NCBI GenBank assembly: GCA_964630755.1
Contig: CAZVYS010000001.1
Coordinates: 25,893 to 89,892, forward strand
DNA from: an uncultured Pseudomonadales bacterium
Lineage (GTDB): Bacteria; Patescibacteriota; Microgenomatia; UBA1400; CG1-02-47-37
Direction: 5' to 3'
Length of the DNA: 64,000 bases
Shown: positions 2,121-23,041 of the stretch, one piece after another
Layout of the letters: each line of letters begins with the position of its first letter
How positions within the stretch are numbered: the first letter of the stretch is position 1
Position numbers and translations under genes: made by a program
The notes under the pieces: generated by a model
The model's input: only the letters and a program-made list of their open reading frames with translations
The model's database searches: none
Told to the model about the DNA's origin: nothing

Positions 2121-3257
2121 CTATAATTTAATAGTTTCAGCTTGCAAGGTAATTTTGTTAATAACTTTGTCTATTGGATAATCTGATTCAATTTGTTTAA
2201 CTTTTTCTAAGTTAGCTCTCGTGGCTGGTTTTTTACTCACTAAACTACAACAATCTTTGTAGGGTTTAATTGCTTGTTTTTCTAGGTCAATATTCTTAAC
2301 TAAGTTAATAATATCTTTTTTATCCATACCGATAAGGGGCCTAAAGATAGGGATGCCAACAGATTCATCAACAGCAACAATGTTTTCCATGGTTTGGGAA
2401 GCCACTTGACCTAAAGAATCACCTAAAACTAAAGCCTGGTAGCCGTGTTTCTTGGCTAGGTTCTCCCCGACTTTAACCATCAGACGTCTAAAAACAACTA
2501 GTTCTTGTTTTTGGAGCTTAGAATCAATTTCTAAAGCTGTTATTTGAAATGGAGTGTATGAAGATAAAAATAGCTTTTGAGATTGAGTGTAACTTGACAG
2601 TTTATCAACAATGGATTTTATTTTTGAGTTTAAAACTTTTTTTTGATCGGCAAAGACATGAAAGTGTAAATAATCGACCTTGGCTCCCCTTTTGGACATT
2701 AAATAACTTGAGGCAATTGAGTCAAAACCACCAGATAACAAAGATAAGACTTTACCAGAGGTGCCAACTGGCAGGCCACCGGATCCAGAAATCTTTTTTG
2801 TGTACAAGTGAGTGAAATTTTTGTTAATTATGATAAAAATTTGAGTTTGAGGATTTTTTAGATTAACTTTTGATTTGGTTGCTTTTCTGACTGCCTCTCC
2901 TACCTTAATGGCTACATCTTGACTATTAAATGAAATGGTTTTATCAGCTCGTGTAACGCGAAGAGCAAAGCTTTTTGGTTTTGAAGCTAATTTTATAGCT
3001 TGCCTTGAAATTTCTTTTAAATTGGTTTTAGTTTCTTTTATATGAGCAAACCAGGCAATGCCAAATACATTTTGAAGTTTATTTATGCTTTGATTAATTA
3101 AACTAGATTTCACCTCTATAAATAACTGTTTTCTTCCCAGAGTGACAATAACTGGATTAATAGTCTGTTTAATGTTTCTGATAAGCTGATGTTCGAAGTC
3201 TTTTCGGTTGTGGCCTTTGAGACCAATTTCTGCGTACCGAACGAGAATTTTTGCCAT
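2121..3257 (-). CDS. thiI: tRNA 4-thiouridine(8) synthase ThiI
   Basis: N-terminal THUMP-like region plus PP-loop SGGFDS. Length and order are typical of ThiI. Confidence 0.8.
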   Translation of the reverse strand: MAKILVRYAEIGLKGHNRKDFEHQLIRNIKQTINPVIVTLGRKQLFIEVKSSLINQSINKLQNVFGIAWFAHIKETKTNLKEISRQAIKLASKPKSFALRVTRADKTISFNSQDVAIKVGEAVRKATKSKVNLKNPQTQIFIIINKNFTHLYTKKISGSGGLPVGTSGKVLSLLSGGFDSIASSYLMSKRGAKVDYLHFHVFADQKKVLNSKIKSIVDKLSSYTQSQKLFLSSYTPFQITALEIDSKLQKQELVVFRRLMVKVGENLAKKHGYQALVLGDSLGQVASQTMENIVAVDESVGIPIFRPLIGMDKKDIINLVKNIDLEKQAIKPYKDCCSLVSKKPATRANLEKVKQIESDYPIDKVINKITLQAETIKL

Positions 3258-3290
3258 ATAAGGGTATTTTATAATAAAATAGACAATAAT

Positions 3291-3359
3291 GCCGGATAGT
3301 AAAATGGCATTACAATTGGTTCTGGACCAATTATTCTAGGTTCGAGTCCTAGTCCGGCA
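3291..3359 (+). tRNA. tRNA, probable tRNA-Gln (anticodon CTG)
   Basis: Cloverleaf: acceptor GCCGGAT / (G)TCCGGC with discriminator A; D-arm GTAA-AATGGCA-TTAC containing GG; anticodon stem ATTGG/CCAAT with loop TTCTGGA (U33, anticodon CUG); short variable loop; T-arm CTAGG-TTCGAGT-CCTAG. The isotype is less certain than the tRNA call itself. Confidence 0.5.
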
Positions 3360-3373
3360 ACAGATCAGAAAAG

Positions 3374-4558
3374 TTATTTAAGTTGTTTTTTGGTGTAGAT
3401 CCAGATTCCGCCCAGGCCTGAAAGCAAAGCTATAAGGCTAACAAAGGCTCCGACTCCAGGAATAAGTTTTAGAAGATAAAGAGCTAGTAAGCCTAAAGAG
3501 AAAGTGACTTGAGGGCTGACTTTTTTCCAGTTTAAATACTTATCAAGAGTGAGGCCAATGGCCATGGCAGTAAATAATTTAGCTAAGCTAAGCTCAATAA
3601 TAAACACCATTGCTAAAATGGCGGCTAAAGGAAAACCTACTCCAGTAATGGCTAATAGCATTAACGCAGGAAAGGTTAATATGACTAAAACTAGTCCCCA
3701 ACCAAGACTTGATAGAAATTTTGATTTAATGTTACCGGCAATAGCTAGGGTTGGTTTTTTTAGTAACCAAAGTAAGACTAAGCCAACAATCAAACTAGAG
3801 AAAAAAGATATTACCTTAAATGCATACTTAGCATTAGACAAATTCTTGTTAAGATTCATTTTGAATTGCTTGTTATTCCATTCGTTTGACTTTGGAGTAT
3901 GGCGTTTTGTTTCACCTAAAATAACAGCCTGATCATCGATCTGAAGATCTTTTTCGGTAGCGTAGGTTAGGTTGCCATTAATAACTGTTTTGGGGCCAAA
4001 ACTTACATCTTCACCACCAATATAGGCTTCGCCGCCAACTGGAGCGTTGTGTTTAAAGTTACCGGCACCAACCATAAGGTTTCTTAAGACTGGAGCTTGA
4101 TTATCAAGCATTCCTGTGCCTGCCAGTAGAGAACCATTTATCTTAGATTGATCATCAACTTTAATAGAACCTGCGCCTACAAGCATGCCGTCACCAATAG
4201 TAGAATCTGTAACAGTTAAATCACCTGCACCAACGACTAAATCATCACCAATTTGACCGTTAATATAGACTTTTCCAGAACCAACGATTAGATCGCCGGT
4301 AATGCTGCCAGAAAAATTAACAACGCCGGCACCAACATAAACATCGCCATCAATAGTGCCAAAGATGTCGACTGTGTCGGCGGCAAGAAATAGATCGTCG
4401 GTGATAACCTCAGATTTTTCGATAACAATGCTGCCTTCGCCTTCTTTTTTAAGAATAACTTTTGCCTGAGTAGTAGAGGCAAAAATAAATAGACTGATAA
4501 ATAGAATAAGAATAATTTTTAGTTTTTTCATATAGATAAAATATACTCTATTTTCCAA
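3374..4558 (-). CDS. membrane protein with an N-terminal signal peptide, Gly-rich beta-helical (bactofilin-like) repeats and a C-terminal four-helix transmembrane domain
   Basis: Repeats of G-x-I/V-x-G-D-L-x-V-G-A-G (GDLIVGSGKVYINGQIGDDLVVGAGDLTV...) followed by about four hydrophobic helices. The likelier start is MKKLKIILILF. Confidence 0.35.
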   Translation of the reverse strand: MENRVYFIYMKKLKIILILFISLFIFASTTQAKVILKKEGEGSIVIEKSEVITDDLFLAADTVDIFGTIDGDVYVGAGVVNFSGSITGDLIVGSGKVYINGQIGDDLVVGAGDLTVTDSTIGDGMLVGAGSIKVDDQSKINGSLLAGTGMLDNQAPVLRNLMVGAGNFKHNAPVGGEAYIGGEDVSFGPKTVINGNLTYATEKDLQIDDQAVILGETKRHTPKSNEWNNKQFKMNLNKNLSNAKYAFKVISFFSSLIVGLVLLWLLKKPTLAIAGNIKSKFLSSLGWGLVLVILTFPALMLLAITGVGFPLAAILAMVFIIELSLAKLFTAMAIGLTLDKYLNWKKVSPQVTFSLGLLALYLLKLIPGVGAFVSLIALLSGLGGIWIYTKKQLK

Positions 4559-4593: not shown

Positions 4594-6378
4594 ATGAAGG
4601 AAATACGAAATATTCTATTGCAGATTCCTAAATTTAAGCGTCGATTCGCAATGTTTGTGGTGGCAGTGATTATTGCTCAAGGAGTGGCAATTCAATTAAT
4701 TCCCTTGGTTGACAGAGAAATAACTAGTTTAGTGGAAAAAGCCATAAAAGGTGAGGTGATTCCAGTTTCAAGTTTTTACCCCTATGCATTAATCGTGGCA
4801 CTAGCTTACCTAGTATTTCGCATATTTAATCGAATTTCTTACACTTTGACTAGTATTTTAAGAGAAGAGGTTTGGAATCATACTTTTAGAACTGGATTTG
4901 CCAAGGTTTTGTTTCATGACCTTGAATATATTACAGCTGATCGATCAGGAGGGCTTTTAAGTAAACTTGAACGAGCTTCGACTAGTTTTGCTAATTTATT
5001 TACCGAATCGGCGGCGGCTCTTTTTCGGAATCTTTCAAAGGCATTTGCTTCATTAATTATTATTTTTAGTATTTCATGGGAAATAGGCTTGGGTGTCTTG
5101 GGAACTATGATTACTTATTATATTGTTTACTGGTTTAGGTTTAAGCTTGATATTCCATATGCTGAAAAAAGAGACAAATTTGCTGATGATGAGTTTAGTC
5201 GAGTATGGGAGGTTATTCCTCAATCAAAAATCAGTAAGATTTTTACAAATGAAAAGAAAGAAATTAAAAATATTGCTTGGATTGGAGATGAGATTATTAA
5301 GATTATTAAAAAACGTGAACTTTTGTGGTCATATGCCAATATAGCTGAGTATCCGTTAGTAACTATTCCAACTATTGTTATTAAACTTTGGGCGGCTTGG
5401 ATGGCTATTAACGGCAGATTTGGCATTCCGACTTTTGTGCTTCTTTATTCGATGATTTCAATAGTTCAAGAGCCAATGTGGGTAATTAACTGGTTTATGT
5501 GGGAGATGCAAGATACTTTTAATAGAGCAAAAAAGTATCTGAAGATTCTTCGCTCAAAAGAAAAAGTTCTAGATCCAGTCAAGCCTGAACGAATAGCTAA
5601 TCCTTTTGGAGATATAAAATTTGAACAGGTCAGCTTTAGCTATTCTCAGGGCCAAAAAAATGTTTTTAAGAAGATAAATCTTAACTTTTCAGGTAAACAA
5701 TTTACAGCCTTAGTGGGAAAATCTGGAGCAGGAAAATCGACGATTACCAACATGATCTGTCGTTTCTTTGACGTTTCCGAAGGCAAGATAACTATTAGCG
5801 GACAGGATATTCGTAAGTTGGCTAAAAAAGATTTACGATCACATATTGGTTTTGTGACCCAAGAGTCCTTTGTTTTCTCTGGGACTGTGGCAGAAAACCT
5901 TCGATATGCAAAAGTTGATGCAACTGATGATGAAATTATGACTGCTATTAAGAAAGCTTATGCGTGGGAATTTATTAAGAACTTTAAAAAAGGCATTCAG
6001 ACCGAAATTGGAGAACGGGGAATAAAACTGTCAGGAGGACAACGTCAACGCTTGTCCATTGCTCGAACTATACTAAAAAATCCATCGATACTTATCTTAG
6101 ATGAAGCGACCAACTCTCTTGATTCTGAGTCTGAGATGGCTGTGCAGCAAGCTCTTGAAAATTTTATGAAAGATCGAACAGTGATTGTGGTGGCGCATCG
6201 TTTGTCTACTGTGCAAAATGCCGATAAGATTTATTTAATTGATGATGGTCAAGTTCAAGAAGAAGGCAACCATCAAGAACTTCTGAAGAAAAACGGAGTT
6301 TATAAAATGTTGTATGAAATTCAATCTGGTGGTTTTGAGAAAAATCGCAAGATTATGCAAGAGTATGAACTTTTATGA
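4594..6378 (+). CDS. ABC transporter, fused permease/ATP-binding protein (type I exporter, MsbA-like)
   Basis: N-terminal transmembrane domain; Walker A GKSGAGKST; signature LSGGQRQR; Walker B ILILDEAT; H-loop. Confidence 0.8.
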   Translation: MKEIRNILLQIPKFKRRFAMFVVAVIIAQGVAIQLIPLVDREITSLVEKAIKGEVIPVSSFYPYALIVALAYLVFRIFNRISYTLTSILREEVWNHTFRTGFAKVLFHDLEYITADRSGGLLSKLERASTSFANLFTESAAALFRNLSKAFASLIIIFSISWEIGLGVLGTMITYYIVYWFRFKLDIPYAEKRDKFADDEFSRVWEVIPQSKISKIFTNEKKEIKNIAWIGDEIIKIIKKRELLWSYANIAEYPLVTIPTIVIKLWAAWMAINGRFGIPTFVLLYSMISIVQEPMWVINWFMWEMQDTFNRAKKYLKILRSKEKVLDPVKPERIANPFGDIKFEQVSFSYSQGQKNVFKKINLNFSGKQFTALVGKSGAGKSTITNMICRFFDVSEGKITISGQDIRKLAKKDLRSHIGFVTQESFVFSGTVAENLRYAKVDATDDEIMTAIKKAYAWEFIKNFKKGIQTEIGERGIKLSGGQRQRLSIARTILKNPSILILDEATNSLDSESEMAVQQALENFMKDRTVIVVAHRLSTVQNADKIYLIDDGQVQEEGNHQELLKKNGVYKMLYEIQSGGFEKNRKIMQEYELL

Positions 6379-9113: not shown

Positions 9114-10060
9114 TAAAATCCGCCAACAACAGTGATTTTACCTCTAATTGGTGGGTGGAATTGATAATTAGTTAACTTAAAGTCATTGAACTTAAAACGA
9201 TCAATGTCTTTGACTTTGGAGTTTAGTTTCATGGTTGGAAAAGGCAAAGGTTTTCGTTTAAGTTGCTCTTTGACTTGATCAAAGTGGTTTTCGTAGATAT
9301 GAGCATCGCCAAAAGTGTGGACAAACTCACCGGGTTTGTAGCCGGTAACATGAGCCAGTAGCAGAGTAAGCAGAGCGTAGGAAGCAATATTAAAAGGCAC
9401 CCCTAGAAACATGTCGGCTGATCGTTGGTAAAGGAGCAAGGAAAGTTTATCGCCGGTAATGTTGATGTGAAACATGGTGTGACAAGGGGCAATGACTGCA
9501 GATTTTTTTCTTGAAGAGGCCATCTCGTAAATGGAACCGGCGTTCCAGGCTGAGATAATGTAGTGTTTTTTTTGTGGTTTTTGCTTGATTTTATCTAAGG
9601 CCCATTTTAATTGATCAATAGTGCGACCAGATTCGGTAGGCCAGTTACGCCATTGAACTCCATAAACAGGACCAATGTCGCCCCACTTTTTCATAAAAGC
9701 TTTGTCTTTTTTAGCTTTATCAATAAAATCTTCTAGAGTTAATTTTGGCAACTTGCCTTGTTTCATTAGTTTTTTGTAGGGCTTGTAAGCCCAGTCATCC
9801 CAAATATGGACGTTGTTGTCAACTAAGTACTTGATGTTACTGGAGCCTGATAAAAACCAGATAAGTTCATGGGCAATGCCCCGCCAGAAGGTTTTTTTGG
9901 TAGTTAAGAGCGGAAAACCTTGAGAAAGATCAAAGCGTATTTGGCGACCAAAAACAGATTTTAATTTAACTCCAGTTGAATGAGACACTTTCCAGGCACC
10001 ATTATCTAAAATATCTTTTAATAAGTTTAGATATTGATGTTCTGGATGATTATTAGACAT
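9113..10060 (-). CDS. thyA: thymidylate synthase (ThyA)
   Basis: QYLNLLKDILDNG at the N-terminus, the active-site region ...IAPCHTMFH..., and the classic thyA-folA pairing. Confidence 0.9.
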   Translation of the reverse strand: MSNNHPEHQYLNLLKDILDNGAWKVSHSTGVKLKSVFGRQIRFDLSQGFPLLTTKKTFWRGIAHELIWFLSGSSNIKYLVDNNVHIWDDWAYKPYKKLMKQGKLPKLTLEDFIDKAKKDKAFMKKWGDIGPVYGVQWRNWPTESGRTIDQLKWALDKIKQKPQKKHYIISAWNAGSIYEMASSRKKSAVIAPCHTMFHINITGDKLSLLLYQRSADMFLGVPFNIASYALLTLLLAHVTGYKPGEFVHTFGDAHIYENHFDQVKEQLKRKPLPFPTMKLNSKVKDIDRFKFNDFKLTNYQFHPPIRGKITVVGGF

Positions 10061-10084
10061 AGGTAATTTTTACCTTTTATTTAA

Positions 10085-10903
10085 CTAATCTGCAAGAGGA
10101 ATTGAGTCTTTAAGGCTGAATTTTCCAACTTTAAGACGCTTGATGTTTAAAGCAAGGGCGGGAATATTTAGTTTTTGGCCAATGTTATTAGCTAACGAAC
10201 GCATATAAGTACCAGATGAGCAAGAAATCTTAAGAGTGGCAGTGGAAAAAGTATTAATGGAGTTTTGATTAAAGAATGCTTGCCAAGTCTTTTTAATTTG
10301 GGATTGTCGAAAGTCTCCTTTTACTAGTTTAATTGATTGAAGTATGTGCTTTTTGAGACTAATAGCAGAAATTCTGTTTATTGAAATTAGATTAATAGAG
10401 TTAATGGTGATTTTTCGAGTGGGAATTTTGATTTTATTTAGCTGATTAGTCCGAGCGTAATAGAAAAGCGGCCTACCTTTAACAGTTTTAGATGAATAGG
10501 GTGGATAAACTTGAACTTGAGGACCAATATAGCTTGGTAAAAGACCTTCAAGGTTGGACCTTGAAGGTTGGTGTCTCGAGAGTCTATTTGTTATAGGCTT
10601 AGAAAGCCTACCTTCAAGGTTGGACCTTGAAGGGTGAGAAGGTAGACCAAGAAAGTCGTAAGTGTCGGTGGAGACACCAAAGACAATTGTTAGCTGATAT
10701 GTTTTATCAAGATTAAGATATTGAGCTTTAAGCTTTTCAGTGGGATCAAGAATAATTAACAACACCCCCTCAGCTAAAGGGTCTAGCCGACCAGCATAGG
10801 TAAGTTTTTGATTTATTAGCTCAGGTTTTAGCTGTTGAAGCCTGTTAATGGCTTGAAGAGGCGTAAAACCTACAGGTTTATTTAAGTTGAAAATCTTTGC
10901 CAT
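10085..10903 (-). CDS. truB: tRNA pseudouridine(55) synthase TruB, with an approximately 90-nt in-frame insertion
   Basis: Catalytic motif AGRLDPLAEGVLLI (GxLDxxAxGVL). A PUA-like C-terminus is present. It carries a tandem palindromic-element insertion encoding PSRSNLEG twice. Confidence 0.8.
   Translation of the reverse strand: MAKIFNLNKPVGFTPLQAINRLQQLKPELINQKLTYAGRLDPLAEGVLLIILDPTEKLKAQYLNLDKTYQLTIVFGVSTDTYDFLGLPSHPSRSNLEGRLSKPITNRLSRHQPSRSNLEGLLPSYIGPQVQVYPPYSSKTVKGRPLFYYARTNQLNKIKIPTRKITINSINLISINRISAISLKKHILQSIKLVKGDFRQSQIKKTWQAFFNQNSINTFSTATLKISCSSGTYMRSLANNIGQKLNIPALALNIKRLKVGKFSLKDSIPLAD
10544..10634. repeat. tandem pair of palindromic elements (ACCTTCAAGGTTGGACCTTGAAGG, twice) with a palindromic spacer, inside truB
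   Basis: Copies at 10544-10568 and 10610-10634. The spacer contains CTCGAGAG and AGGCTTAGAAAGCCT palindromes. In-frame with no stop. Confidence 0.7.
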
Positions 10904-15913: not shown

Positions 15914-16862
15914 AAGCCCAGTTTATAAGAAGAGAGCTTTCTTGAAATCGATCAAGACTTCCTAGAATAACGGTAATAATCTCTTTATCCCCTCTTTTTG
16001 TGTAAGTAACTAAACACTCACCAGCCAACTCTGTCCAGCCGGTTTTGACACCTTTTAATCCCTTAATAGCACCTAATAGCTGATTAATGGTTTCTAGCTC
16101 ATGAGTAATAGTGTTGTCAACATTGTAAACAGTAATGTTTTGGGTGTTAACAATTTTTCTAAAAATGGGGTTTTCCATAGCATGGGCAGCTAGTAAACTT
16201 AAGTCATGAACTGTGGTGTAATGACCATAATTATCTAAACCAGTGGGGTTTTGAAATTGAGTATCAGTAAGATTAAGTTCAGTTAGTTTATGATTCATGG
16301 CCTTGACAAAACCAGCCTCTTTTTGTGGATGATAATTAGCTAAGGCTGCAGCGGCGTCATTTCCAGATTGAACTAGTAAACCGTAAAGTAAGTTTTCAAC
16401 GGTAATTTCCTCATGAAACTCTAACTCCATTGATTGACCTTCGGTGACTAAAGAATCAATCTTCACAACATCGTCAAGATCAAAAACTTCTAAAGCAATT
16501 AGGGCAGTCATGATTTTGGTGGTAGAAGCTGGCAAGAGTTTTAAATCTTGATTTTTATTAAAAAGCATTGCTTTGGAATTAACATCAACTACAATAGCTG
16601 AACGGGCAGTTATGTACGGAGCTAATATGCCCGTATGATTAACTGGATATTCTGAAGTGGAACTAGATTGGATATTTATTGGCCTAACTAAAGGACTTGA
16701 TTGATCAATGTTAAGGTTAAGATAATAGTTTTTGGCAGGAATAAAGATAAGAACAAAGATAGCTAAGATAAGATTAAGCTTAAGATAAGGAGTTTTTTTG
16801 ACAAAGGCTATGAATTTGTCCATGGAATTAGTTAACAAATTCACCCAGTTTTGGATTAACAA
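15867..16862 (-). CDS. D-alanyl-D-alanine carboxypeptidase (serine-type, PBP5/DacA-like)
   Basis: SxxK (ASTTKIM), SxN (VQSGNDAA) and KTG (KTGWT) motifs at the expected spacing; N-terminal transmembrane anchor. Confidence 0.75.
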   Translation of the reverse strand: MLIQNWVNLLTNSMDKFIAFVKKTPYLKLNLILAIFVLIFIPAKNYYLNLNIDQSSPLVRPINIQSSSTSEYPVNHTGILAPYITARSAIVVDVNSKAMLFNKNQDLKLLPASTTKIMTALIALEVFDLDDVVKIDSLVTEGQSMELEFHEEITVENLLYGLLVQSGNDAAAALANYHPQKEAGFVKAMNHKLTELNLTDTQFQNPTGLDNYGHYTTVHDLSLLAAHAMENPIFRKIVNTQNITVYNVDNTITHELETINQLLGAIKGLKGVKTGWTELAGECLVTYTKRGDKEIITVILGSLDRFQESSLLINWAFTNHQWQDLSEASHL

Positions 16863-18768
16863 GATCGATAAAATCCTGATAGTTCATTTTAATAGATTTT
16901 TCGTGTAGGCCAGCGTTAAATACTATTTTTTTATTTTTCCCGAGTTTTTTATCGACAAAAACCGATACATCGAATAAATTCCCAAATGGTGGAACTGAGC
17001 CAATCTTTAAACCAGTAAGGTTAGTAACTTCAGTTTCTGTGGCCATTCTTAAATCTTTGACGTTAAAGGCTTTTTTAAAGGCTTTTGAATCTACTTTAGT
17101 GGCAGCGGATAAGACTAGCATGATTGGTTTTTTGTCGGCCATCATAACAAGAGCTTTAGCGCCTTGTTTGATCTTGGTTCCTCGAACTTTTGCAGCTTCA
17201 AGGCTTGTAAAAACTGGCTGGTGCTCAAAAGTTTTGTATTTAAGTTGATGCTTATCAAGTAAATTTATGATTTTTTGGTTAACTTCAAGGCCCTTGGGGC
17301 TTAACTTCTGGCCAATGGTTTTAATATGTAGTTCAATTAACTGCTCAGTATCTGGTAGACTAGGGGCATCAACCACAGCTGTTTGACCGGAAGAAATGGC
17401 CGGAAAAGCCATGACTTCGCGGATGCTTTTTTCACCTAAAATAACCATTAAAAAGCGGTCAAGCCCTGGAGCAATACCACCATGGGGTGGAACACCGTGC
17501 TTGAAAGCGGTTAGCATGTGCTCGAATTTTTGTTTTTGTTTTTGGGTAAAACCAATTAATTCAAAGACTTTTTCTTGAACTTTTGGATCATGGATCCTAA
17601 TGGAACCACCACCGACTTCATAACCATTTAAGACCAGGTCATGCTGAAGGCCACGAACTTTTAATGGATTTGTTTTTAGTAATTTTAGGTCATCTTGATG
17701 AGGAGAAGTAAACATGTGATGACTTGGAGCAAATTCAGCTTTACCTGATCCATGGAAAAAATCTTCCTCTGATTGTTTGTTAAATAAAGGAAAGTCAATA
17801 ATCCAAGCAAAAGCTAGCTCGTCTTTATCTTTTTTGTTTTTCCGAAGATCAGGTTTATCTGAACCATATTTGGCTTGCGCTTCAGCATGAGAAATTCTTG
17901 GCCAAGGAGATTTTGAGATCTTTTTTTCTGGAAAGATTTCTTTAATTAATTTAGTAAATAAATCCTCTGTTAATTTTAAGATGTCGTCTTGAGTTACAAA
18001 AGACATTTCTAGATCAAGCTGAGTAAACTCACCATAAGCTCGATCTGCTCGCGGGTCTTCGTCACGGAAGCATCTTGCAATCTGAAAATATCTTTCAAAG
18101 CCAGCTACCATCAGTAATTGTTTGTACTGTTGTGGACTTTGGGGTAAAGCGTAAAAATTACCGGGTTGTAAGCGTGATGGAACTAAAAAATCTCGAGCTC
18201 CTTCTGGAGTAGTTTTGGTAAGAATTGGAGTTTCGATTTCAACAAAATCTTTGTTAGTTAAAAAATCTCGGATAAATTTAAATACCTTGGATCGAATTTT
18301 CATGTTTTGGTTCATTCTAGGTCTTCGAAGATCAAGATAACGGTATTTTTGTCGGATTTTTTCTTCTATGTTCAAACCATCAGTGTCTATAGGTAGTGGC
18401 ATTTCTTTTGATTTGGTTAAAACTTTAATTTTTTCAGCCTTGATTTCGACTGTGCCAGTTTTAAGTTTAGGGTTAGTGTAACCTTTGCCTCTTTTAACTA
18501 CCTTGCCTTGAACTTCGACAACATACTCTGGTTTTAGCTCGATTTTTAGATTTTCAACAACTACTTGGATTAGACCAGATCGATCGCGAAGATCAAAAAA
18601 GACAATCTTGCCATGTCCCCTAATAGAATTAACCCAACCCTTGAGGGTGACTGACTTGTTATTTTGGGTGGCGGTTTCAAGGGCGAGTGTTCTTTTCATG
18701 TATTTGATTGTATCGGTAAATCTAAGGGTTGACAAGAATAGATAGTTTGATAAGATAACTAGATGCAA
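16828..18768 (-). CDS. aspS: aspartyl-tRNA synthetase (no GAD insertion) fused to a C-terminal YbaK/ProX-like aminoacyl-tRNA trans-editing domain
   Basis: OB-fold N-terminus; class II motif 2 FRDEDPRADRAYGEFTQLD; motif 3 GGIAPGLDRFLMV; AspRS-specific QSPQQYKQLLMV. The last approximately 160 aa (KTFEHQPVFTSLEAAKVRG...LVLSAATKVDSKAF...LRMATETEVTNLTGLKIGSVPPFG...) match the tRNA_edit (YbaK) fold. The track start is TTG; the likelier start is the ATG at 18699 (MKRTLALE). Confidence 0.8.
   Translation of the reverse strand: MHLVILSNYLFLSTLRFTDTIKYMKRTLALETATQNNKSVTLKGWVNSIRGHGKIVFFDLRDRSGLIQVVVENLKIELKPEYVVEVQGKVVKRGKGYTNPKLKTGTVEIKAEKIKVLTKSKEMPLPIDTDGLNIEEKIRQKYRYLDLRRPRMNQNMKIRSKVFKFIRDFLTNKDFVEIETPILTKTTPEGARDFLVPSRLQPGNFYALPQSPQQYKQLLMVAGFERYFQIARCFRDEDPRADRAYGEFTQLDLEMSFVTQDDILKLTEDLFTKLIKEIFPEKKISKSPWPRISHAEAQAKYGSDKPDLRKNKKDKDELAFAWIIDFPLFNKQSEEDFFHGSGKAEFAPSHHMFTSPHQDDLKLLKTNPLKVRGLQHDLVLNGYEVGGGSIRIHDPKVQEKVFELIGFTQKQKQKFEHMLTAFKHGVPPHGGIAPGLDRFLMVILGEKSIREVMAFPAISSGQTAVVDAPSLPDTEQLIELHIKTIGQKLSPKGLEVNQKIINLLDKHQLKYKTFEHQPVFTSLEAAKVRGTKIKQGAKALVMMADKKPIMLVLSAATKVDSKAFKKAFNVKDLRMATETEVTNLTGLKIGSVPPFGNLFDVSVFVDKKLGKNKKIVFNAGLHEKSIKMNYQDFIDLVNPKLGEFVN
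18706..18757. promoter_or_regulatory. overlapping divergent sigma70-like promoters sharing one -35 hexamer
   Basis: + strand: TTGACA (18729-18734), 16-nt spacer, TAAGAT (18751-18756). - strand: TTGTCA (reverse complement of 18730-18735), 17-nt spacer, TACAAT (reverse complement of 18706-18711), then 6 nt to the aspS ATG (18699), so aspS may be leaderless. Confidence 0.35.
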
Positions 18769-18887
18769 AAAAACATTTTATTTAACCGCCTTATTATTAC
18801 GGACCGAATTGAGTCTATCCTTTTTGGAATTCTCAGCAACTTAGGTCGGGAGGCAGTTAAGTAAAGTTTTAATAAATAAATTACTAA

Positions 18888-18913
18888 GCACCTCCCACTC
18901 GGGAGGTTTTTTT
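18888..18913 (+). terminator. Rho-independent terminator (CCTCCC-ACTC-GGGAGG followed by T7) directly upstream of the small ORF's ribosome-binding site
   Basis: A 6-bp GC stem plus TTTTTTT. The identical GGGAGG at 18848-18853 could form an alternative antiterminator pairing with CCTCCC. Confidence 0.6.
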
Positions 18914-18939
18914 ATGCACCAAAGGGGGTGAAAGAAAAT

Positions 18940-19128
18940 ATGAAAAATGTAGAATCGAGAACAAAAATTTCTCCATATACGTTTAATGGAGTTGAATTTC
19001 GTGATCCTGGGAATGGCCCTTTAGATCCAGGTGATGGAGGAAGTGACGAGGGCCCAATCTCTCCAGGTGATACAGGTGCACCAGGTGTCGTATATCAAAC
19101 GGAGCGTGCTTCTCAAGCTCGTAATTAA
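18940..19128 (+). CDS. small hypothetical protein (63 aa) with a Gly/Pro/Asp-rich repetitive tail
   Basis: Strong Shine-Dalgarno AAAGGGGGTG 9 nt upstream of the ATG. Internal peptide repeat GPLDPGDGG / GPISPGDTG. The track start is a GTG at 18928. No signal peptide. Confidence 0.35.
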   Translation: MKNVESRTKISPYTFNGVEFRDPGNGPLDPGDGGSDEGPISPGDTGAPGVVYQTERASQARN

Positions 19129-19144
19129 TACTTAAATATATACT

Positions 19145-19171
19145 AGCCTACGAGGAGAGTCCTTGTAGGCT
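19145..19171. repeat. palindromic element copy (AGCCTACGAGGAGAGTCCTTGTAGGCT) abutting the recJ stop codon
   Basis: Inverted repeat with a GGAGAGTCC core; overlaps the TAA of recJ (19171-19173). Confidence 0.6.
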
Positions 19172-20856
19172 TAGGTCATGAGAACTGTTTTGACTTTTAG
19201 TTGGAGGGATTTTTGGTTGTTCCAGACGTTTTTATCGAGAGTGTAGACAAGATCAATTGGTTGATTTTCTGATAAGTCTTTGGCTAGATAGCCGTGGTTA
19301 AAAGCAATGGCATTTACCTTCAAGGAGTCTCCCTGTAGGCTTAATTTAAGATGTTTTTGGTCTTGGCCGACGGTGCGAAAACTAGCTAAAGAGACTTTTT
19401 TAGAAATAAAGACTGGCCGAGGATTGCCAAAACCAAAGGGGCGTAGTTTTTCAAGGTCATCATATAATTCCCAGTTAATGTCAGAAAGATTAAGCTCTAG
19501 GTCAACCTCTAGGATTGGAGTGAGTTGTCTTTCTGTTAGTTGCTTTTCAGCTAAAGCAGTTAATTTTTTCTTCACTTTTTCAAGATTTTGATTTGCAACC
19601 GTAAAGCCAGCAGCCATTGGGTGACCGCCGTGTTCAAGTAAGTCTTTTTCAATAGATCTAATATTTTTAATGGCATTAAAGCCTTTAATCGACCTAATTG
19701 AAGCTTTGGAAGTGTTTTTGCCAAGAGCGACTACAATGCTAGGTCGATGATATTTTTCAGCCAAGCGACTGGCAACTAGACCAACTAAACCTTCATGAAA
19801 AGTTTTGTCTGCTACGAAAATGAGCTTTGGCATTTGATTTTGATTTAGCTTGGAGACTTTGTTGGTAATGTTTTTGGCATGAAAGTACATATCTAGAGTT
19901 TGGGTTTGACGAGTCTGATTGGTAAGGTTCACGGTTTGGGCTAGTTTTTTAGCCTTGTTATTATCGGTGGTGCAAAGTAACCTCAATGAATCTAGGGCAT
20001 GAGATAAACGCCCCATGGCGTTAAGCCGAGGACCAATAACAAAACTGGCCTGATAGGCTTCAAGGTCTTGGAGTTTAAAACCAGCTTCATCAGCTAGAGC
20101 AATTAGACCGGGTCTTTTAGAACTTTGAAGTTTTTTTAAACCAAATTTAGCAATAGAGCGATTTATACCCACTAAAGGCATCATGTCAGCAATAGAACCA
20201 AGGGCAACTAAACTTAAGTGTTGAGGGATATTTTTAAGAAGCTTTGAAATCTGCCAAGCAACGCCAACGCCAGCTAGCTTAGTAGAGTGAACGATGGAGT
20301 GAGCTTTGGGAAGTTTATTACCCTTTGGTTGATGGTGGTCAGAGATAATAACTTCAATGCCTAGTCTATTGGCATAATCCACTCCTTTAAAGGCCGAGAT
20401 ACCGTTGTCAACGGTGATGATAAGATCGGGCTTTTTCTTTTTTAAAGAAATAATCTCGTCAATGCCCTGAGGAGATAAACCGCGGATTTTATCATCTCGG
20501 GGTGGAATATATGGTAAAGCATTAGCTTTTAATTGATAAAGTGTTTCCCACAAAACAGCGGTGGCGGTTACTCCATCAGCGTCAAAATCTCCGTAAATAA
20601 AGATCAGTTCTTTATTTTTAATAGCTTTTTTAATTCTTGTAACTGCTTTTTTGAGTTGAGTTGAATTAATTTCTAAGTCTTTAGGGGAAAAGTTGATTGG
20701 ATTTTCTGGGCTTAAAAATTGGTTTTGGAGTTTTTTGGATATAAGACCTCTGTTAATTAATAAAGCCTGGATGATTTCCTGGCGGCGTTTATTGAGACTT
20801 TTAGTTTTTAGTTTAGATTTTATTTTTATCTTTTTATCCATAAGAGATATAATCAT
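19171..20856 (-). CDS. recJ: single-stranded-DNA-specific exonuclease RecJ
   Basis: DHH family motifs (GDFDADGVT, ...IISDHH) and a DHHA1-like C-terminal region. Carries an in-frame palindromic element near the C-terminus (LSLQGDSLKVNAI). Confidence 0.8.
   Translation of the reverse strand: MIISLMDKKIKIKSKLKTKSLNKRRQEIIQALLINRGLISKKLQNQFLSPENPINFSPKDLEINSTQLKKAVTRIKKAIKNKELIFIYGDFDADGVTATAVLWETLYQLKANALPYIPPRDDKIRGLSPQGIDEIISLKKKKPDLIITVDNGISAFKGVDYANRLGIEVIISDHHQPKGNKLPKAHSIVHSTKLAGVGVAWQISKLLKNIPQHLSLVALGSIADMMPLVGINRSIAKFGLKKLQSSKRPGLIALADEAGFKLQDLEAYQASFVIGPRLNAMGRLSHALDSLRLLCTTDNNKAKKLAQTVNLTNQTRQTQTLDMYFHAKNITNKVSKLNQNQMPKLIFVADKTFHEGLVGLVASRLAEKYHRPSIVVALGKNTSKASIRSIKGFNAIKNIRSIEKDLLEHGGHPMAAGFTVANQNLEKVKKKLTALAEKQLTERQLTPILEVDLELNLSDINWELYDDLEKLRPFGFGNPRPVFISKKVSLASFRTVGQDQKHLKLSLQGDSLKVNAIAFNHGYLAKDLSENQPIDLVYTLDKNVWNNQKSLQLKVKTVLMT
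19316..19341. repeat. palindromic element copy (ACCTTCAAGGAGTCTCCCTGTAGGCT), in-frame in recJ
   Basis: GGAGTCTCC core; encodes LQGDSLKV on the minus strand. Confidence 0.7.
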
Positions 20857-20886: not shown

Positions 20887-21615
20887 ATGAATTTACGTCT
20901 GAAAAATTATAAGAAAATTAGAACTCCGTTTGTATTTTTAGATGAAACTGGATCAATAAACTCAAAAGCAGAAAGATTTTTTGGAATTGGAATGATTAAG
21001 TGCATGCAGCCATTTTTTTTAGACTCAAGCATTAGATACATTAGGCAAAAATATAAGCTTTATGATGAAATAAAGTGGAATACTATTTCTAAAGCAAAAA
21101 TGGCTGTTTTAAAAGAAATAATTAAAACTATTTTTGAAACTCCAGGAATTTATTTTTCTTCCTTAATTATTAATAAAGATGATGTTAATTTTGAAATTGA
21201 GTTTAATAATAATCCATATTTAGCATATCAAAAATTTTCAGAAGAGTTGCTAAAAAATAGTATTAGTCAAACAGAAATATTAACGGTTTTAGCTGATTAT
21301 ATTGATACGCCTAAATCAGTTAGGTATGAAGTAATGGTAAAACATCAAGTTAATCAAGCACTAGATCGACTAGCAATCGGGGGCATACATAGAGTAGATT
21401 CAAAAGGGGTAAATTTAATTCAAATAACTGATTTATTTTTAGGAGCCGTAGTGTATAACTATAAAATTGACAATAAATTAGTAACTGGAGACAAGAATAA
21501 AATAAAAATACTACAATATATTCAGTCAGGGTTAAAGATTAAATCTTTAGGTCAATCTATAAACGTAAAAGGGTTTAAAGTATTTGAATACAATAAAAAA
21601 GGGCCATCATCCTAA
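20887..21615 (+). CDS. hypothetical protein, DUF3800-like
   Basis: The N-terminus TPFVFLDETGSINS resembles the DUF3800 (Y)IDESG start. No other motif recognised. Confidence 0.3.
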   Translation: MNLRLKNYKKIRTPFVFLDETGSINSKAERFFGIGMIKCMQPFFLDSSIRYIRQKYKLYDEIKWNTISKAKMAVLKEIIKTIFETPGIYFSSLIINKDDVNFEIEFNNNPYLAYQKFSEELLKNSISQTEILTVLADYIDTPKSVRYEVMVKHQVNQALDRLAIGGIHRVDSKGVNLIQITDLFLGAVVYNYKIDNKLVTGDKNKIKILQYIQSGLKIKSLGQSINVKGFKVFEYNKKGPSS

Positions 21616-21667: not shown

Positions 21668-23041
21668 ATGAAAATTAAGCTTCCAGGGCCAGTAAAAAAA
21701 GTAATTAAAGTGGTAGAAAAAGCAGGCTTTGAAATATATATAGTTGGAGGGGCGGTTAGAGATATATTAACTGGTAAAGAAGTTAAAGATTGGGACCTAA
21801 CCACAAATGCAAAGCCTGAAGAGATAACTAAGTTATTTAAAGACTCGTTTTATGATAATGATTTTGGCACAGTGGGGATAGCTGAAAAGCACTTGGGAGG
21901 TAAGGATGAGGGAGTTTTAGAGATTACTACCTTTCGAACTGAATCAAGTTATTCTGACTCTAGACGCCCTGATAAAGTTAAGTGGGGTAAAAGTTTAGAT
22001 GAGGATTTAACTAGACGAGATTTTACTATCAATGCCATGGCAATAAAAATCTCCAGCCTACAAGGATCATCCTTAAAGGTTGAGATAATCGACCCATTTA
22101 AAGGACAAAAGGATTTAGAAAAAAGATTAATTAGGGCGGTTGGTGACCCAGATAAGCGGTTTAAAGAAGATGCTTTAAGAATGATGAGGGCGATTAGAAT
22201 CGCAGCAGAACTTGGTTTTACCATTGAAGCTAAGACCTTAAAAGCGATTAGCACGGATGCTAGATTACTAAAAAAAATTGCCAAAGAAAGGGTTCGAGAT
22301 GAGTTGCTTAAGATTATTGTTTCAAAATTTCCTAAAGATGGAGTGACTTTGTTATATACCAGCGGACTACTACAATTTATTATTCCAGAGTTAATTGAAA
22401 CTCGAGAAGTTGAACAAGCTGGGCATCATACTAAAGATGTATGGAACCATAGTTTAGACGCGATGGCTAACTGTCCTTCGCCTGATCCAATTATTCGCCT
22501 TGCTACCCTACTCCATGATGTTGGCAAACCAAGGTCAAAAAGAAATCGAGGTAAAGGCAAAGAAATTACTTTTTACAATCATGAAGTGATTGGGGCCAGG
22601 ATGGTAAAAGATATTGCCAGGAGACTAAAGATGAGTAAAAAAGAAATAGACTTACTCTGGTTACTGGTGCGCTGGCATATGTTTGCTTATGAACCCAAGA
22701 TGACAGACAAAGCGATTCGAAGATTTATTAAACGAGTCTCGTTAGAAAATATTAATAAAATGATGATGCTTAGGATTGGAGACCGGATTGGCGGGGGTAG
22801 TAAAGCTACTTCCTGGAGATTAAGAGAATTACAACAACGAATTGGTGAAGTGCTTTATACGCCGATGCAGATAAAAGACTTAAAAGTATCTGGTCACGAT
22901 GTAATGAAGATAAAAAAAATTAAAGGTGGGCCAGAGATTGGAAAAATTTTAGAAAAGCTGTTTGATGAAGTAATGGAAGATAGTAGCAAAAACAACAGAA
23001 AGTATCTTTTAAAACGGATTAAAGAAATAAATCCAAAATAA
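21668..23041 (+). CDS. cca: tRNA nucleotidyltransferase (CCA-adding enzyme / poly(A) polymerase family) with an HD domain
   Basis: IVGGAVRDILTG...DWDLTT polymerase-beta head motif; HD domain (LLHDVGK). In-frame palindromic element encoding SSLQGSSLKVEI. Confidence 0.75.
   Translation: MKIKLPGPVKKVIKVVEKAGFEIYIVGGAVRDILTGKEVKDWDLTTNAKPEEITKLFKDSFYDNDFGTVGIAEKHLGGKDEGVLEITTFRTESSYSDSRRPDKVKWGKSLDEDLTRRDFTINAMAIKISSLQGSSLKVEIIDPFKGQKDLEKRLIRAVGDPDKRFKEDALRMMRAIRIAAELGFTIEAKTLKAISTDARLLKKIAKERVRDELLKIIVSKFPKDGVTLLYTSGLLQFIIPELIETREVEQAGHHTKDVWNHSLDAMANCPSPDPIIRLATLLHDVGKPRSKRNRGKGKEITFYNHEVIGARMVKDIARRLKMSKKEIDLLWLLVRWHMFAYEPKMTDKAIRRFIKRVSLENINKMMMLRIGDRIGGGSKATSWRLRELQQRIGEVLYTPMQIKDLKVSGHDVMKIKKIKGGPEIGKILEKLFDEVMEDSSKNNRKYLLKRIKEINPK
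22055..22080. repeat. palindromic element copy (AGCCTACAAGGATCATCCTTAAAGGT), in-frame in cca
   Basis: CCTACAAGG / CCTTAAAGG arms with a GGATCATCC core. Confidence 0.65.

Follow-up and report, generated by a model that had tools for sequence, protein, structure and literature searches.

A candidate leader-peptide transcription attenuator ahead of an orphan small-protein gene in an uncultured Patescibacteria genome

In an uncultured Patescibacteria genome, the interval between aspS and recJ contains a compact unit, divergent from aspS, to which we give a little more credence than doubt as a ribosome-mediated (leader-peptide) transcription attenuator, predicted to gate a small orphan protein gene (ORF2). 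Leader-peptide transcription attenuation is a well-known kind of switch. We regard the ribosome-mediated mechanism as the most likely because a leader open reading frame (ORF1) was found in the unit. Direct observation, in a window of 64 kb (the whole stretch of DNA analysed, 64,000 nt) and in related contigs, covers the sequence elements and how they are conserved, the alternative pairings, and where this leader ORF lies. A first-pass annotation of the same window had listed many of these elements, all of which are present in the sequence barring small coordinate slips, and had left three options open; the one supported here, by conservation of both pairing and layout, is an attenuating leader of a regulated small-protein gene.

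Promoters, terminator and start contexts at the aspS-recJ site

The features of the site, in window coordinates, are the following.

18697-18735, minus strand: predicted leaderless aspS promoter and start (-35 TTGTCA 18735-18730, 17 nt, -10 TACAAT 18712-18707, ATG 18699-18697)
18729-18756, plus strand: promoter of the unit (-35 TTGACA 18729-18734, 16 nt, -10 TAAGAT 18751-18756)
18763-18864, plus strand: leader ORF of 33 codons (MQKNILFNRLIITDRIESILFGILSNLGREAVK), ATG 6 nt past the -10
18785-18792, plus strand: segment 1 (ACCGCCTT), 5' strand of the long-range stem P1 (RNAalifold columns 23-30 with 88-95)
18816-18831, plus strand: internal hairpin UCC-U5-GGA inside P1 (RNAalifold columns 54-59 with 64-69)
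18845-18857, plus strand: segment 2, GTCGGGAGGCAGT (GGGAGG 18848-18853), able to pair with segment 1 or segment 3
18890-18913, plus strand: segments 3 and 4, intrinsic terminator (A-CCTCCC 18890-18896, loop ACTC, GGGAGG-T 18901-18907, T7 18907-18913)
18924-19128, plus strand: Shine-Dalgarno sequence and ORF2 (GGGGGTG 18924-18930, ATG 18940, stop at 19128; 62 aa)
19145-19171, unstranded: 12-bp hairpin (inverted repeat) abutting the recJ stop codon, here also closing the plus-strand unit

The perfect TTGACA reported earlier for the plus strand can be read directly in the sequence, and a TG at 18748-18749 gives this promoter an extended -10; both it and the aspS promoter scored 10/12 in the promoter scan. 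Their -35 hexamers overlap back to back, as had been proposed, and TTGACA and the aspS -10 (ATTGTA on the plus strand) are invariant in the window and in the two closest lineages fetched, L023 and L024. These two have TATTAT as the plus-strand -10, 17-18 nt past the -35, against TAAGAT in the window. The earlier description of aspS as leaderless held for the layout, since in most relatives the -10 box stands 5-7 nt before the ATG (for example in L007, L008, L014 and L015, with TACAAT, 6-7 nt and ATG also in L033, L035 and L036), but the ATG follows the -10 by 7 nt and not 6. Judged by start contexts, leaderless translation is common in this organism and most genes have no Shine-Dalgarno sequence: a strong -10 box lies 5-9 nt upstream of 15 of 69 gene starts versus 3.1% of all ATG triplets (p = 2e-9), and any Shine-Dalgarno-like tetramer is present at only 19 of the 69.

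No other canonical intrinsic terminator in the 64 kb is as clean as this one, which has a hairpin energy of -12.6 kcal/mol; its sequence elements had been correctly located in the first pass, with a start (18888) that is 2-3 nt early. Its stem is invariant in L023, L024 and L037, where only the loop varies. GGGAGG occurs 12 times in the window on both strands, with 3 occurrences at this locus, and by our own estimate the chance of a same-strand GGGAGG within 60 nt upstream of the terminator is about 0.6%. Further downstream, the hairpin at 19145-19171 is kept in L023 with a compensatory A-U to G-C change and also stands directly after recJ in L033; because L033 does not have the unit, we rejected this hairpin as a piece of an inserted cassette and regard it as an ancestral recJ 3' hairpin. 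A mobile element or paralogous repeat was rejected too, BLAST and the covariance model finding no second copy in the window. T-box or Asp-tRNA sensing, considered from the aspS neighbour, was likewise discarded: the unit is divergent, would control ORF2 and matches no T-box model.

Leader ORF and alternative folds of the leader RNA

The stop codon of the leader ORF, TAA (18862-18864), lies 14 nt past the first G of segment 2. This ORF was absent from the first-pass annotation. In L023 and L024 the frame is likewise open (32 and 31 aa, respectively), with all indels being multiples of three; across the three lineages the ORF has 31-33 codons. Its start coincides with the predicted 5' end of the transcript or lies a few bases from it, and its stop falls within the upstream GGGAGG or just past it, 11-14 nt downstream of the first G of segment 2. 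In the window it probably starts leaderless; in L023 and L024 the ATG lies 13 nt past the -10, which would leave a 5' UTR of about 6 nt without a Shine-Dalgarno sequence and not a strictly leaderless start. We infer that the leader ORF is translated, the open frame being the sole sign of translation. The peptide sequence is not conserved among the window, L023 and L024, and substitutions are spread evenly over codon positions (12/13/14, 14/14/15 and 9/5/10). In this three-lineage comparison ORF1 has no codon-position bias and no amino-acid-level purifying selection, which makes a functional protein unlikely.

None of the three leader peptides contains a run of any amino acid, and neither regulatory codons nor a defined motif for stalling were seen. 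Such runs define only the amino-acid subclass of leader-peptide attenuators. The antibiotic or translation-stress subclass needs no such run (PMC4191407). Because the peptide has no run, a general translation-stress or stalling signal is favoured as the putative trigger over a single amino acid. It is very unlikely, in our assessment, that the element is an amino-acid-specific attenuator from the aromatic (Phe/Trp) leader family, sensing one tRNA such as Phe, Trp or Arg. The window does have the arms and a ...REV(A)K-stop ending in common with the aromatic leader of L031 (MKRQAWFYFTFTFPNREVK), but the REV ending is forced, because CGG-GAG-GTG falls within the conserved RNA arm. RFWIL and RVWIF occur in L023 and L024, respectively, a few codons ahead of segment 2, and each of the three Arg codons belongs to the less used CGN class; yet no tandem run occurs, the W of L023 and L024 is a G in the window, and the Ile/Leu/Val share in L023 is at background by our own count. 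The weak match of the window to Phe_leader (RF01859; 22.3 bits, E = 0.33) is far under the gathering score of 55 and is driven by the ATG and the terminator, and L023 and L024 gave no match to this family at E up to 1. Moreover, the downstream gene is neither an amino-acid nor a tRNA gene.

The second GGGAGG, at 18848-18853, can indeed pair with the CCTCCC arm of the terminator, as noted in the first pass, and this pairing is conserved in L023 and L024, where GTCGGGAGG within segment 2 is identical to that of the window. The resulting 2:3 antiterminator helix has 6 bp in the window and 8 bp in L023 and L024, with about -13 to -17.5 kcal/mol, equal to or above the strength of the terminator. 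A comparison of the stems at the recJ-aspS spacer of relatives, which had been proposed earlier, thus found the pairing conserved, but the 2:3 helix gives no covariation evidence because it is invariant. For P1, RNAalifold found two pairs (26/92 and 23/95) changed on both sides in a compensatory manner, with a covariation term of about zero over the three independent homologues; single-sequence folds agree with P1, which in the window extends outward from 18775. Inside P1 the TCC..TTTGGA(T)T block is conserved in the three-lineage alignment, and the UCC-U5-GGA hairpin is a candidate RNA polymerase pause hairpin. The fold z-score is -3.6 in the window and -3.6 to -4.9 over the three sequences.

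Constrained folding gave 1:2 plus the terminator when the leader was unmasked, the 2:3 antiterminator when the first 52-73 nt were masked, and the terminator again when masking extended through the stop codon. Masking the 5' part of the leader switched the minimum-energy fold in all three sequences, which bears out the terminator/antiterminator alternative proposed in the first pass. The unit thus has an intrinsic terminator between its promoter and the putatively regulated gene (18890-18913), a 2:3 antiterminator and a 1:2 anti-antiterminator that are mutually exclusive and switch in the constrained folds, and a short ORF, of predicted translation, that overlaps segment 1, ends at segment 2 and is conserved in position.

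An OFF riboswitch would fit as well, with the antiterminator strand and the 3' strand of P1 overlapping. Such an overlap is a classic expression-platform design. We weighed a factor-dependent attenuator, in which P1 (18785-18857) would close a domain of about 75 nt that binds a ligand, protein or RNA and the leader ORF would be incidental; binding would stabilise P1, sequester segment 2 and let the terminator form. The unconstrained leader peptide sequence, the conserved ACCG and UCC-loop-GGA hairpin inside P1, and a leader far better conserved than the gene that it would control all agree with this possibility, which we nevertheless hold to be unlikely. The P1 interior differs much between the window and L023/L024, with broken pairs; an AUG at or near the 5' end would be translated where leaderless messages initiate, and the ribosome would in any case open up the 5' strand of P1. 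Furthermore, the open frame and stop position are kept in the three lineages and in all the analogous loci described below. The idea of a known riboswitch or RNA family, to be checked by an Rfam scan, found no match at gathering score: the whole window contained two tRNAs only, a permissive scan of 18600-19300 gave nothing above 22 bits, and matches there and in the related loci were sub-threshold and terminator-driven, with no other Rfam match even at E = 10.

In the ribosome-mediated attenuator that we favour, transcription would start at about 18763, from a -35 overlapping that of the divergent leaderless aspS, and the transcript would open with the AUG of the 33-codon leader ORF. This AUG should be translated leaderless in this organism, most of whose genes have no Shine-Dalgarno sequence. 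Four segments would then compete: 1 (18785-18792), 2 (GGGAGG 18848-18853), 3 (CCUCCC 18891-18896) and 4 (GGGAGG 18901-18906, followed by U7). With no ribosome on the leader, 1:2 and 3:4 would form and transcription would stop at about 18913, giving a 150-nt RNA. A ribosome reaching the stop codon would cover segment 2, so that 3:4 forms and transcription terminates again. A ribosome stalled earlier would hold segment 1 and free segment 2 for pairing with segment 3, blocking the terminator, and the polymerase would enter ORF2, to be translated from its own Shine-Dalgarno sequence. That stalling is the trigger, and what causes it, we infer from the sequence.

Relatives, analogous loci and known attenuators

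The unit recurs at the recJ-aspS site in L023 and L024, where RecJ has 79% and 77% identity, respectively, to the protein of the window. Promoter, leader, terminator, ribosome-binding site and start codon have 63-78% DNA identity in the three lineages, and the terminator, Shine-Dalgarno sequence and ATG are invariant in L023 and L024, as are the -35, the aspS -10 and GTCGGGAGG. These three are the only independent homologues of the unit. GTDB species representatives reached through AspRS (the closest 70-78% identical) did not have it, tblastn with both peptides against GTDB representatives returned nothing, RecJ relatives at 57-61% identity had other cargo or nothing at the site, and an arm-pattern scan of viral contigs gave no match. 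Strain-level variants were nearly identical, the informative changes being a neutral terminator-loop change and loss of an ATG after the T-run. This ATG belongs to a five-codon mini-ORF (MHQRG) after the terminator, which we rejected as functional because its ATG is lost in most L023-type contigs.

A pattern search found four analogous loci on other metagenomic contigs (L028, L029, L031 and L032), in which TCGGGAGG is followed by CACCTCCC, a 4-nt loop, and GGGAGG with a T-run; since the pattern required the shared arm sequences, arm identity is by construction and homology with the window leader is not established. In these loci a short ORF starts 4-11 nt past a -10 box and stops -6 to +27 nt from segment 2, and its peptide matches the downstream gene. 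SPSESSS precedes a gene named in the source record as a HAD-IB family phosphatase / phosphoserine-phosphatase-like hydrolase, on the contig of L028, the only one of these contigs labelled Patescibacteria in its NCBI record; YWFYF-type peptides precede aroB, a prephenate-dehydratase-like gene and pheS. A covariance model built from the three homologues scored the analogous loci at 32-43 bits. They differ from the window in that segment 1 immediately adjoins segment 2, whereas about 60 nt separate the two in the window, in that their peptides carry regulatory runs, and in that their downstream genes are amino-acid-related or pheS and not an orphan; in L032 the terminator's 3' arm also serves as a Shine-Dalgarno sequence. 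The serine- and aromatic-type elements suggest that the same design may serve ordinary amino-acid genes.

Classical attenuators (trpL, pheL/pheM, hisL, leuL, ilv; RF01859) have the same four-segment 1:2, 2:3, 3:4 design as the window, with a leader ORF that spans segment 1 and ends at segment 2, and a gene directly after the terminator. The window differs from them in having no regulatory codon run, in a leader ORF without a Shine-Dalgarno sequence that starts at or near the transcript 5' end, in the distance between segments 1 and 2, which encloses extra hairpins, and in a target that is an orphan 62-aa protein instead of a biosynthetic or tRNA synthetase gene. Leaderless upstream ORFs have precedents: Deinococcus deserti has 14 predicted leaderless leader-peptide attenuators (PMC4007540), and in mycobacteria polycysteine leaderless short ORFs were described as cysteine-responsive attenuators of operonic expression (bioRxiv 10.1101/834739). 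There, as predicted for the window, the upstream ORF lies at the transcription start, ahead of a Shine-Dalgarno-led main gene, in an organism where leaderless translation is common; in contrast, those peptides are enriched in an amino acid relevant to the downstream gene, and the window comes from another phylum, Patescibacteria. The bmrB-bmrCD leader-peptide attenuator of B. subtilis works without the need for an amino-acid run (PMC4191407), and other stress- or antibiotic-sensing leaders are those of msrD (PMC10314930) and hflXr (PMC6310831) and the upstream ORF of E. coli topAI-yjhQ (PMC12121999). All four, like the window, have no amino-acid run and combine a terminator with alternative stem-loops within or after the leader ORF. 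In them stalling, and not one tRNA, is the trigger, as we propose for the window, but they control resistance, transporter and toxin-antitoxin genes with experimental support, whereas for the window the inducing condition is wholly hypothetical and the predicted target, a small protein, is hypervariable and uncharacterised.

The small-protein gene and the possible meaning of its control

As described in the first pass, a Shine-Dalgarno sequence right after the T-run is followed by an ORF of 63 codons (62 aa plus stop) with GP(L/I)(D/S)PGD(G/T)G repeats. The product is acidic and rich in Gly, Pro and Asp, and the GPLDPGDGG / GPISPGDTG repeat stems from a 36-nt tandem DNA duplication (19015-19040 and 19051-19076). 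In relatives the small ORF is conserved as an ORF and not as a sequence: over the three lineages it has 62-69 codons, keeps position, length and codon-position GC pattern (about 0.6 / 0.5 / 0.2 in each), and would be open by chance in shuffled sequence with a probability of 0.006-0.018 per lineage, while DNA identity is only 41-48% and the three products have no BLASTP similarity to one another. The search for homologues called for in the first pass found none by sequence; a word-indexed search, with ORF2 alone and with a three-sequence profile, returned only those three proteins. An exhaustive HMMER search pointed to a 13-residue PYTWNGVEF motif that is repeated in large surface proteins with T9SS sorting domains, but the match is short and neither the L023 nor the L024 product has the motif, so we did not accept it as homology. 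No Pfam or PADLOC profile matched ORF2 or the small genes beside it, and AlphaFold on the three-sequence alignment predicted no fold and no secondary structure (pLDDT 55).

The spacing of T-run, Shine-Dalgarno sequence and ATG is fixed in the three lineages, with the Shine-Dalgarno within 11 nt of the T-run. Because this leaves no room for a separate ORF2 promoter, a free-standing small RNA becomes less likely. The unit could still be a small RNA of about 150 nt or a small-protein gene (ORF1), with ORF2 served by constitutive low read-through of a leaky terminator and the 2:3 pairing non-regulatory, since a strong promoter followed by a perfect terminator would give a discrete 150-nt product with a stable, conserved structure. 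Weak, terminator-driven Rfam resemblance to LhrC, LLnc147 and RsaE is compatible with this, and attenuator-released RNAs can act in trans, as does rnTrpL (PMC6614838). We consider it distinctly unlikely, given the position of ORF2 just past the T-run in all three lineages, a 2:3 helix at least as strong as the terminator, three GGGAGG/CCTCCC copies inside 60 nt versus 12 in the whole window, and the lack of amino-acid-level purifying selection in ORF1.

In the small genomes of Patescibacteria, or the Candidate Phyla Radiation, few regulators can be recognised, and to our knowledge almost nothing is known of gene control in this group. A full-text literature search found no paper joining Patescibacteria with leader peptides, terminators or leaderless translation. 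The unit suggests that these bacteria may use classical attenuation logic with a leaderless upstream ORF. The regulatory leader also appears to be much better conserved than the ORF2 protein, which would mean that ORF2 evolves fast and yet that its expression matters. Should ribosome stalling in general be the trigger, the element would sense translation stress in a compact and portable form. As a bolder and rather improbable reading, Patescibacteria would have a translation-state sensor inducing a hypervariable small protein, or the P1 domain would be a new clade-restricted riboswitch class; such a sensor is undescribed within the papers that we could search. In the sensor case, a leaderless ORF without amino-acid specificity would turn ribosome stalling, for example from starvation in a host-dependent organism or from attack by a ribosome-targeting toxin or antibiotic, into read-through, and the induced protein would be acidic, disordered and under diversifying or very relaxed selection. 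Either the sensor or the riboswitch, if true, would give a first handle on conditional regulation in uncultured reduced genomes.

The plus-strand unit and its small gene

In the window, which has a G+C content of about 36%, the 471-bp spacer between aspS and recJ carries a plus-strand unit of promoter, leader, terminator and small gene (ORF2). The nearest relatives of the AspRS and RecJ encoded here are in metagenome-assembled genomes of Patescibacteria (Microgenomates/Shapirobacteria-like). Every element named by the first-pass annotation was found on direct reading of the sequence:

16828-18699, minus strand: aspS, flanking the unit
18735-18730 (-35 TTGTCA) and 18712-18707 (-10 TACAAT), minus strand: aspS promoter, 17-nt spacing, 10/12 in promoter scan
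18729-18734 (-35 TTGACA) and 18751-18756 (-10 TAAGAT), plus strand: promoter of the unit, 16-nt spacing, upstream TG, 10/12 in promoter scan
18890-18913, plus strand: intrinsic terminator ACCTCCC-ACTC-GGGAGGT then T7, from sequence reading
18924-18930 and 18940-19128, plus strand: Shine-Dalgarno and 62-aa frame of ORF2
19171-20856, minus strand: recJ, flanking the unit

The -35 hexamers of aspS and of the unit overlap back to back, and the aspS ATG does lie just behind its -10, at a distance of 7 nt rather than the 6 nt first proposed; this leaderless layout of aspS is kept in relatives. The terminator is the cleanest canonical intrinsic terminator within the 64-kb window. GGGAGG occurs 12 times on the two strands of the window, close to chance expectation, and three of these copies fall in 18848-18906.

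Species representatives found through AspRS, at 56-78% identity, lacked the unit, and recJ directly adjoins aspS in the related loci L007, L008 and L033. It was present in the closest RecJ relatives, L023 (79%) and L024/L025/L030 (77%), which have the antisense small gene with its ATG about 240 bp from that of aspS, as in the window. In the DNA alignment, TTGACA, the aspS -10, ACCG, a UCC-loop-GGA hairpin, GTCGGGAGG, AAGCACCTCCCAC..GGGAGGTTTTTT and the Shine-Dalgarno and ATG of ORF2 were invariant, and identity was 63-78% over promoter and leader versus only 41-48% over ORF2.

The GP(L/I)(D/S)PGD(G/T)G repeat described earlier for ORF2 is borne out and is caused by a 36-nt tandem duplication. 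Searches for ORF2 homologues and protein families returned neither, structure prediction gave no fold, and BLASTP detected no similarity among the products of the window, L023 and L024, even at E = 100. Despite this lack of mutual similarity, the frame is open over 62-69 codons in each lineage (shuffled-sequence chance 0.006-0.018 each) and GC at codon positions 1, 2 and 3 is about 0.6, 0.5 and 0.2 in all three, a coding-type pattern, which argues that ORF2 is a genuine gene undergoing very rapid evolution. A five-codon mini-ORF (18914-18931, ATG CAC CAA AGG GGG TGA) starts right behind the T-run and ends inside the ORF2 Shine-Dalgarno. L023 has it, L024 does not, and its ATG is ATA in five of the six L023-type contigs (L039-L043, the sixth, L038, being the L023 contig itself), so we set it aside as probably non-functional.

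History and surroundings of the recJ-aspS site

The hairpin at 19145-19171 has a counterpart directly 3' of recJ in L033, and there it is followed at once by the near-palindromic -35 (TTGTCAA) that the aspS promoter shares with the window. It is the ancestral recJ 3' hairpin; the unit therefore fills the gap from this hairpin to the aspS -35, with the -35 reused in the opposite direction. The absence of the unit from L033 would reflect either a loss in that lineage or a gain in the window's clade. Weak copies of the recJ 3' palindrome AGCCTACGAGGAGAGTCCTTGTAGGCT, with 5-7 mismatches in 27 nt, lie within recJ (19315-19341) and within the CCA-adding enzyme gene (cca, 22055-22081), and may be due to chance.

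The spacer is a hot spot whose content varies across relatives (L006, L007, L008, L023, L024, L027, L033, L035 and L036): it holds nothing, a Phd/ParE toxin-antitoxin pair, or an orphan gene of 122, 203 or 81 aa; the 122-aa gene is in the L023 spacer and its 3' end is also found in L027. The L006 spacer (2380-3990) is 1.6 kb long and ORF-poor (longest ORF at most 132 aa), has a G+C of 0.45-0.49, above its flanks, and matched nothing in Rfam at a cut-off as loose as E = 0.1. Assemblies often break here, with L002 and L003 beginning at window position 18856, L005 at 18826, and both L026 and L027 stopping shortly past recJ.

Two neighbouring features also vary. The window AspRS has a C-terminal PF04073 tRNA_edit (YbaK/ProX-like) domain (about 16828-17300, minus strand), a fusion present in L023 and absent in L024, L033, L035 and L036; GTDB relatives align to residues 1 to about 465 only. 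A DUF3800 gene (20887-21615, plus strand) sits between recJ and cca in the window, and looks like a separate insertion since the two genes lie side by side, in divergent orientation, in L023, L024, L026 and L027.

A leader ORF and alternative RNA folds

The leader contains a 33-codon ORF overlooked in the first-pass annotation, with its ATG at 18763, 6 nt past the -10, its stop TAA at 18862-18864, just 3' of the upstream GGGAGG, and the peptide MQKNILFNRLIITDRIESILFGILSNLGREAVK. Of 69 crude gene starts in the window, only 19 have a Shine-Dalgarno-like tetramer of any kind. A strong -10 box lies 5-9 nt 5' of the start codon in 15 of the 69, versus 3.1% when every ATG triplet is counted (p = 2e-9), examples being 12570, 14797, 29965, 40509, 42129, 48968 and 56051. 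Leaderless initiation would thus be common in this genome, and the 5'-terminal AUG of the leader ORF should therefore be translated; leaderless mRNA appears to be the normal form for operon-first genes in this organism.

The frame is also open in L023 (MTYLKQFSHFLIKNRLAEIRFWILKGSREVAK) and L024 (MKTQQLTHFIKTDRLAEVRVWIFLKGSREVA), where the ATG lies 13 nt past the -10 (TATTAT), a distance at which the transcript would begin not strictly with AUG but with a very short 5' untranslated region that lacks a Shine-Dalgarno. Among the three sequences all indels are multiples of three, substitutions are spread evenly over the codon positions, the stop falls 11-14 nt past the first G of segment 2 of the leader RNA, and no repeated amino acid was found in the peptides. 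Judged from this alignment, conservation extends to the presence and position of the leader ORF but not to its peptide sequence.

Four arms (segments 1-4) of the leader RNA can pair as 1:2 (stem P1), 2:3 (antiterminator) or 3:4 (terminator). Segment 1 (alignment columns 23-30, window 18785-18792) pairs long-range with segment 2 in the GGGAGG region, and RNAalifold and the three single-sequence folds concur on the 1:2 stem plus terminator (z-scores -3.6 to -4.9). At pair 26/92 the window has G-C where L023 and L024 have A-U, and pair 23/95 has also changed on both sides. The 2:3 helix has six invariant pairs, with two more in L023 and L024. Its energy of -13 to -17.5 kcal/mol makes it no less stable than the terminator hairpin, which has -12.6 kcal/mol. 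In constrained folding, all three sequences formed 1:2 and the terminator with no ribosome, formed 2:3 and no terminator when the first 52-73 nt were masked to mimic a ribosome within the leader ORF, and formed the terminator when masked through the stop codon.

The best-supported reading, which we favour with moderate confidence, is a ribosome-mediated attenuator; the attenuation idea of the first-pass annotation is supported and sharpened. If a ribosome stalls early within the leader ORF, segment 2 would be free for the antiterminator; a ribosome at the stop codon, or none, would give the terminator. Because its Shine-Dalgarno comes at most 11 nt behind the T-run, ORF2 would be expressed only by read-through. 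We infer that the leader is translated, that stalling is what triggers read-through, and what the signal would be; the identical helices could possibly also serve a riboswitch or a switch that depends on a protein, and a leaky terminator behind a small RNA is another possible account of the terminator-capped transcript.

Similar elements and known parallels

Scanning metagenomic contigs for TCGGGAGG, N25-50, CACCTCCC, N4, GGGAGGTTT picked up the L024 lineage plus four further contigs, whose arm sequences are fixed by the search pattern; their upstream ORFs and peptides are not. In each of the four, a short ORF starts a few nt past a -10 box and ends at -6 to +27 nt relative to segment 2, and its peptide content fits the downstream genes:

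L028, about 9953-10089: SPSESSS in a Ser-rich peptide; NCBI record labelled Patescibacteria
L029, 3387-3520 and 2852-2945: aromatic-rich peptides
L031, 2451-2561: aromatic-rich peptide
L032, 10358-10489 and 4708-4836: aromatic-rich peptides

The gene behind the L028 element is named in source records as a HAD-IB family phosphatase / phosphoserine-phosphatase-like hydrolase. The aromatic-type elements, with peptides MKKLVLKAWYNYYFTSR, MKRQAWFYFTFTFPNREVK, MKNNRSYWFYFTFTS, MNQQTQSYWFYFTS..., lie 3' of rplT and 5' of aroB, a prephenate-dehydratase-like gene and pheS; these flanking genes were identified by reading translations, and the L032 record names L20 and 3-dehydroquinate synthase. Elements of the four contigs scored 29-41 bits against Rfam Phe_leader, under its gathering score of 55, and 32-43 bits against a covariance model of the three homologues. 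These patterns suggest that L028, L029, L031 and L032 hold unannotated, predicted leader-peptide attenuators, and that, in one Patescibacteria contig or more, the same arm design serves ribosome-mediated attenuation with upstream ORFs whose 5' leader is very short or absent.

In L032 the terminator 3' arm (GGGAGG) lies 7 nt 5' of the aroB ATG and so probably doubles as its Shine-Dalgarno. This contig (Ga0137403_10002231) has 35% G+C and its proteins are named 'Methylomirabilota bacterium' in NCBI; Methylomirabilota is a G+C-rich phylum, and a binning error may therefore lie behind the name. L023 has a second terminator-like element (6074-6201, minus strand; CTCCC-ATGA-GGGAG-T8), which lies immediately against the ATG at the start of the 122-aa gene 3' of ORF2 and scored 27.6 bits (E = 0.002) with the covariance model.

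Since the window leader peptide has no regulatory run, its closest functional parallels are attenuators of the bmrB-bmrCD type, which sense translation stress (PMC4191407). The leaderless start of its leader ORF has parallels in Deinococcus deserti, among predicted leader peptides (PMC4007540), and in mycobacteria, among leaderless short ORFs (bioRxiv 10.1101/834739). A full-text literature search found no published attenuators in Patescibacteria; the locus would add to this phylum an unannotated example of a known regulatory class, with an orphan, hypervariable gene as its target.
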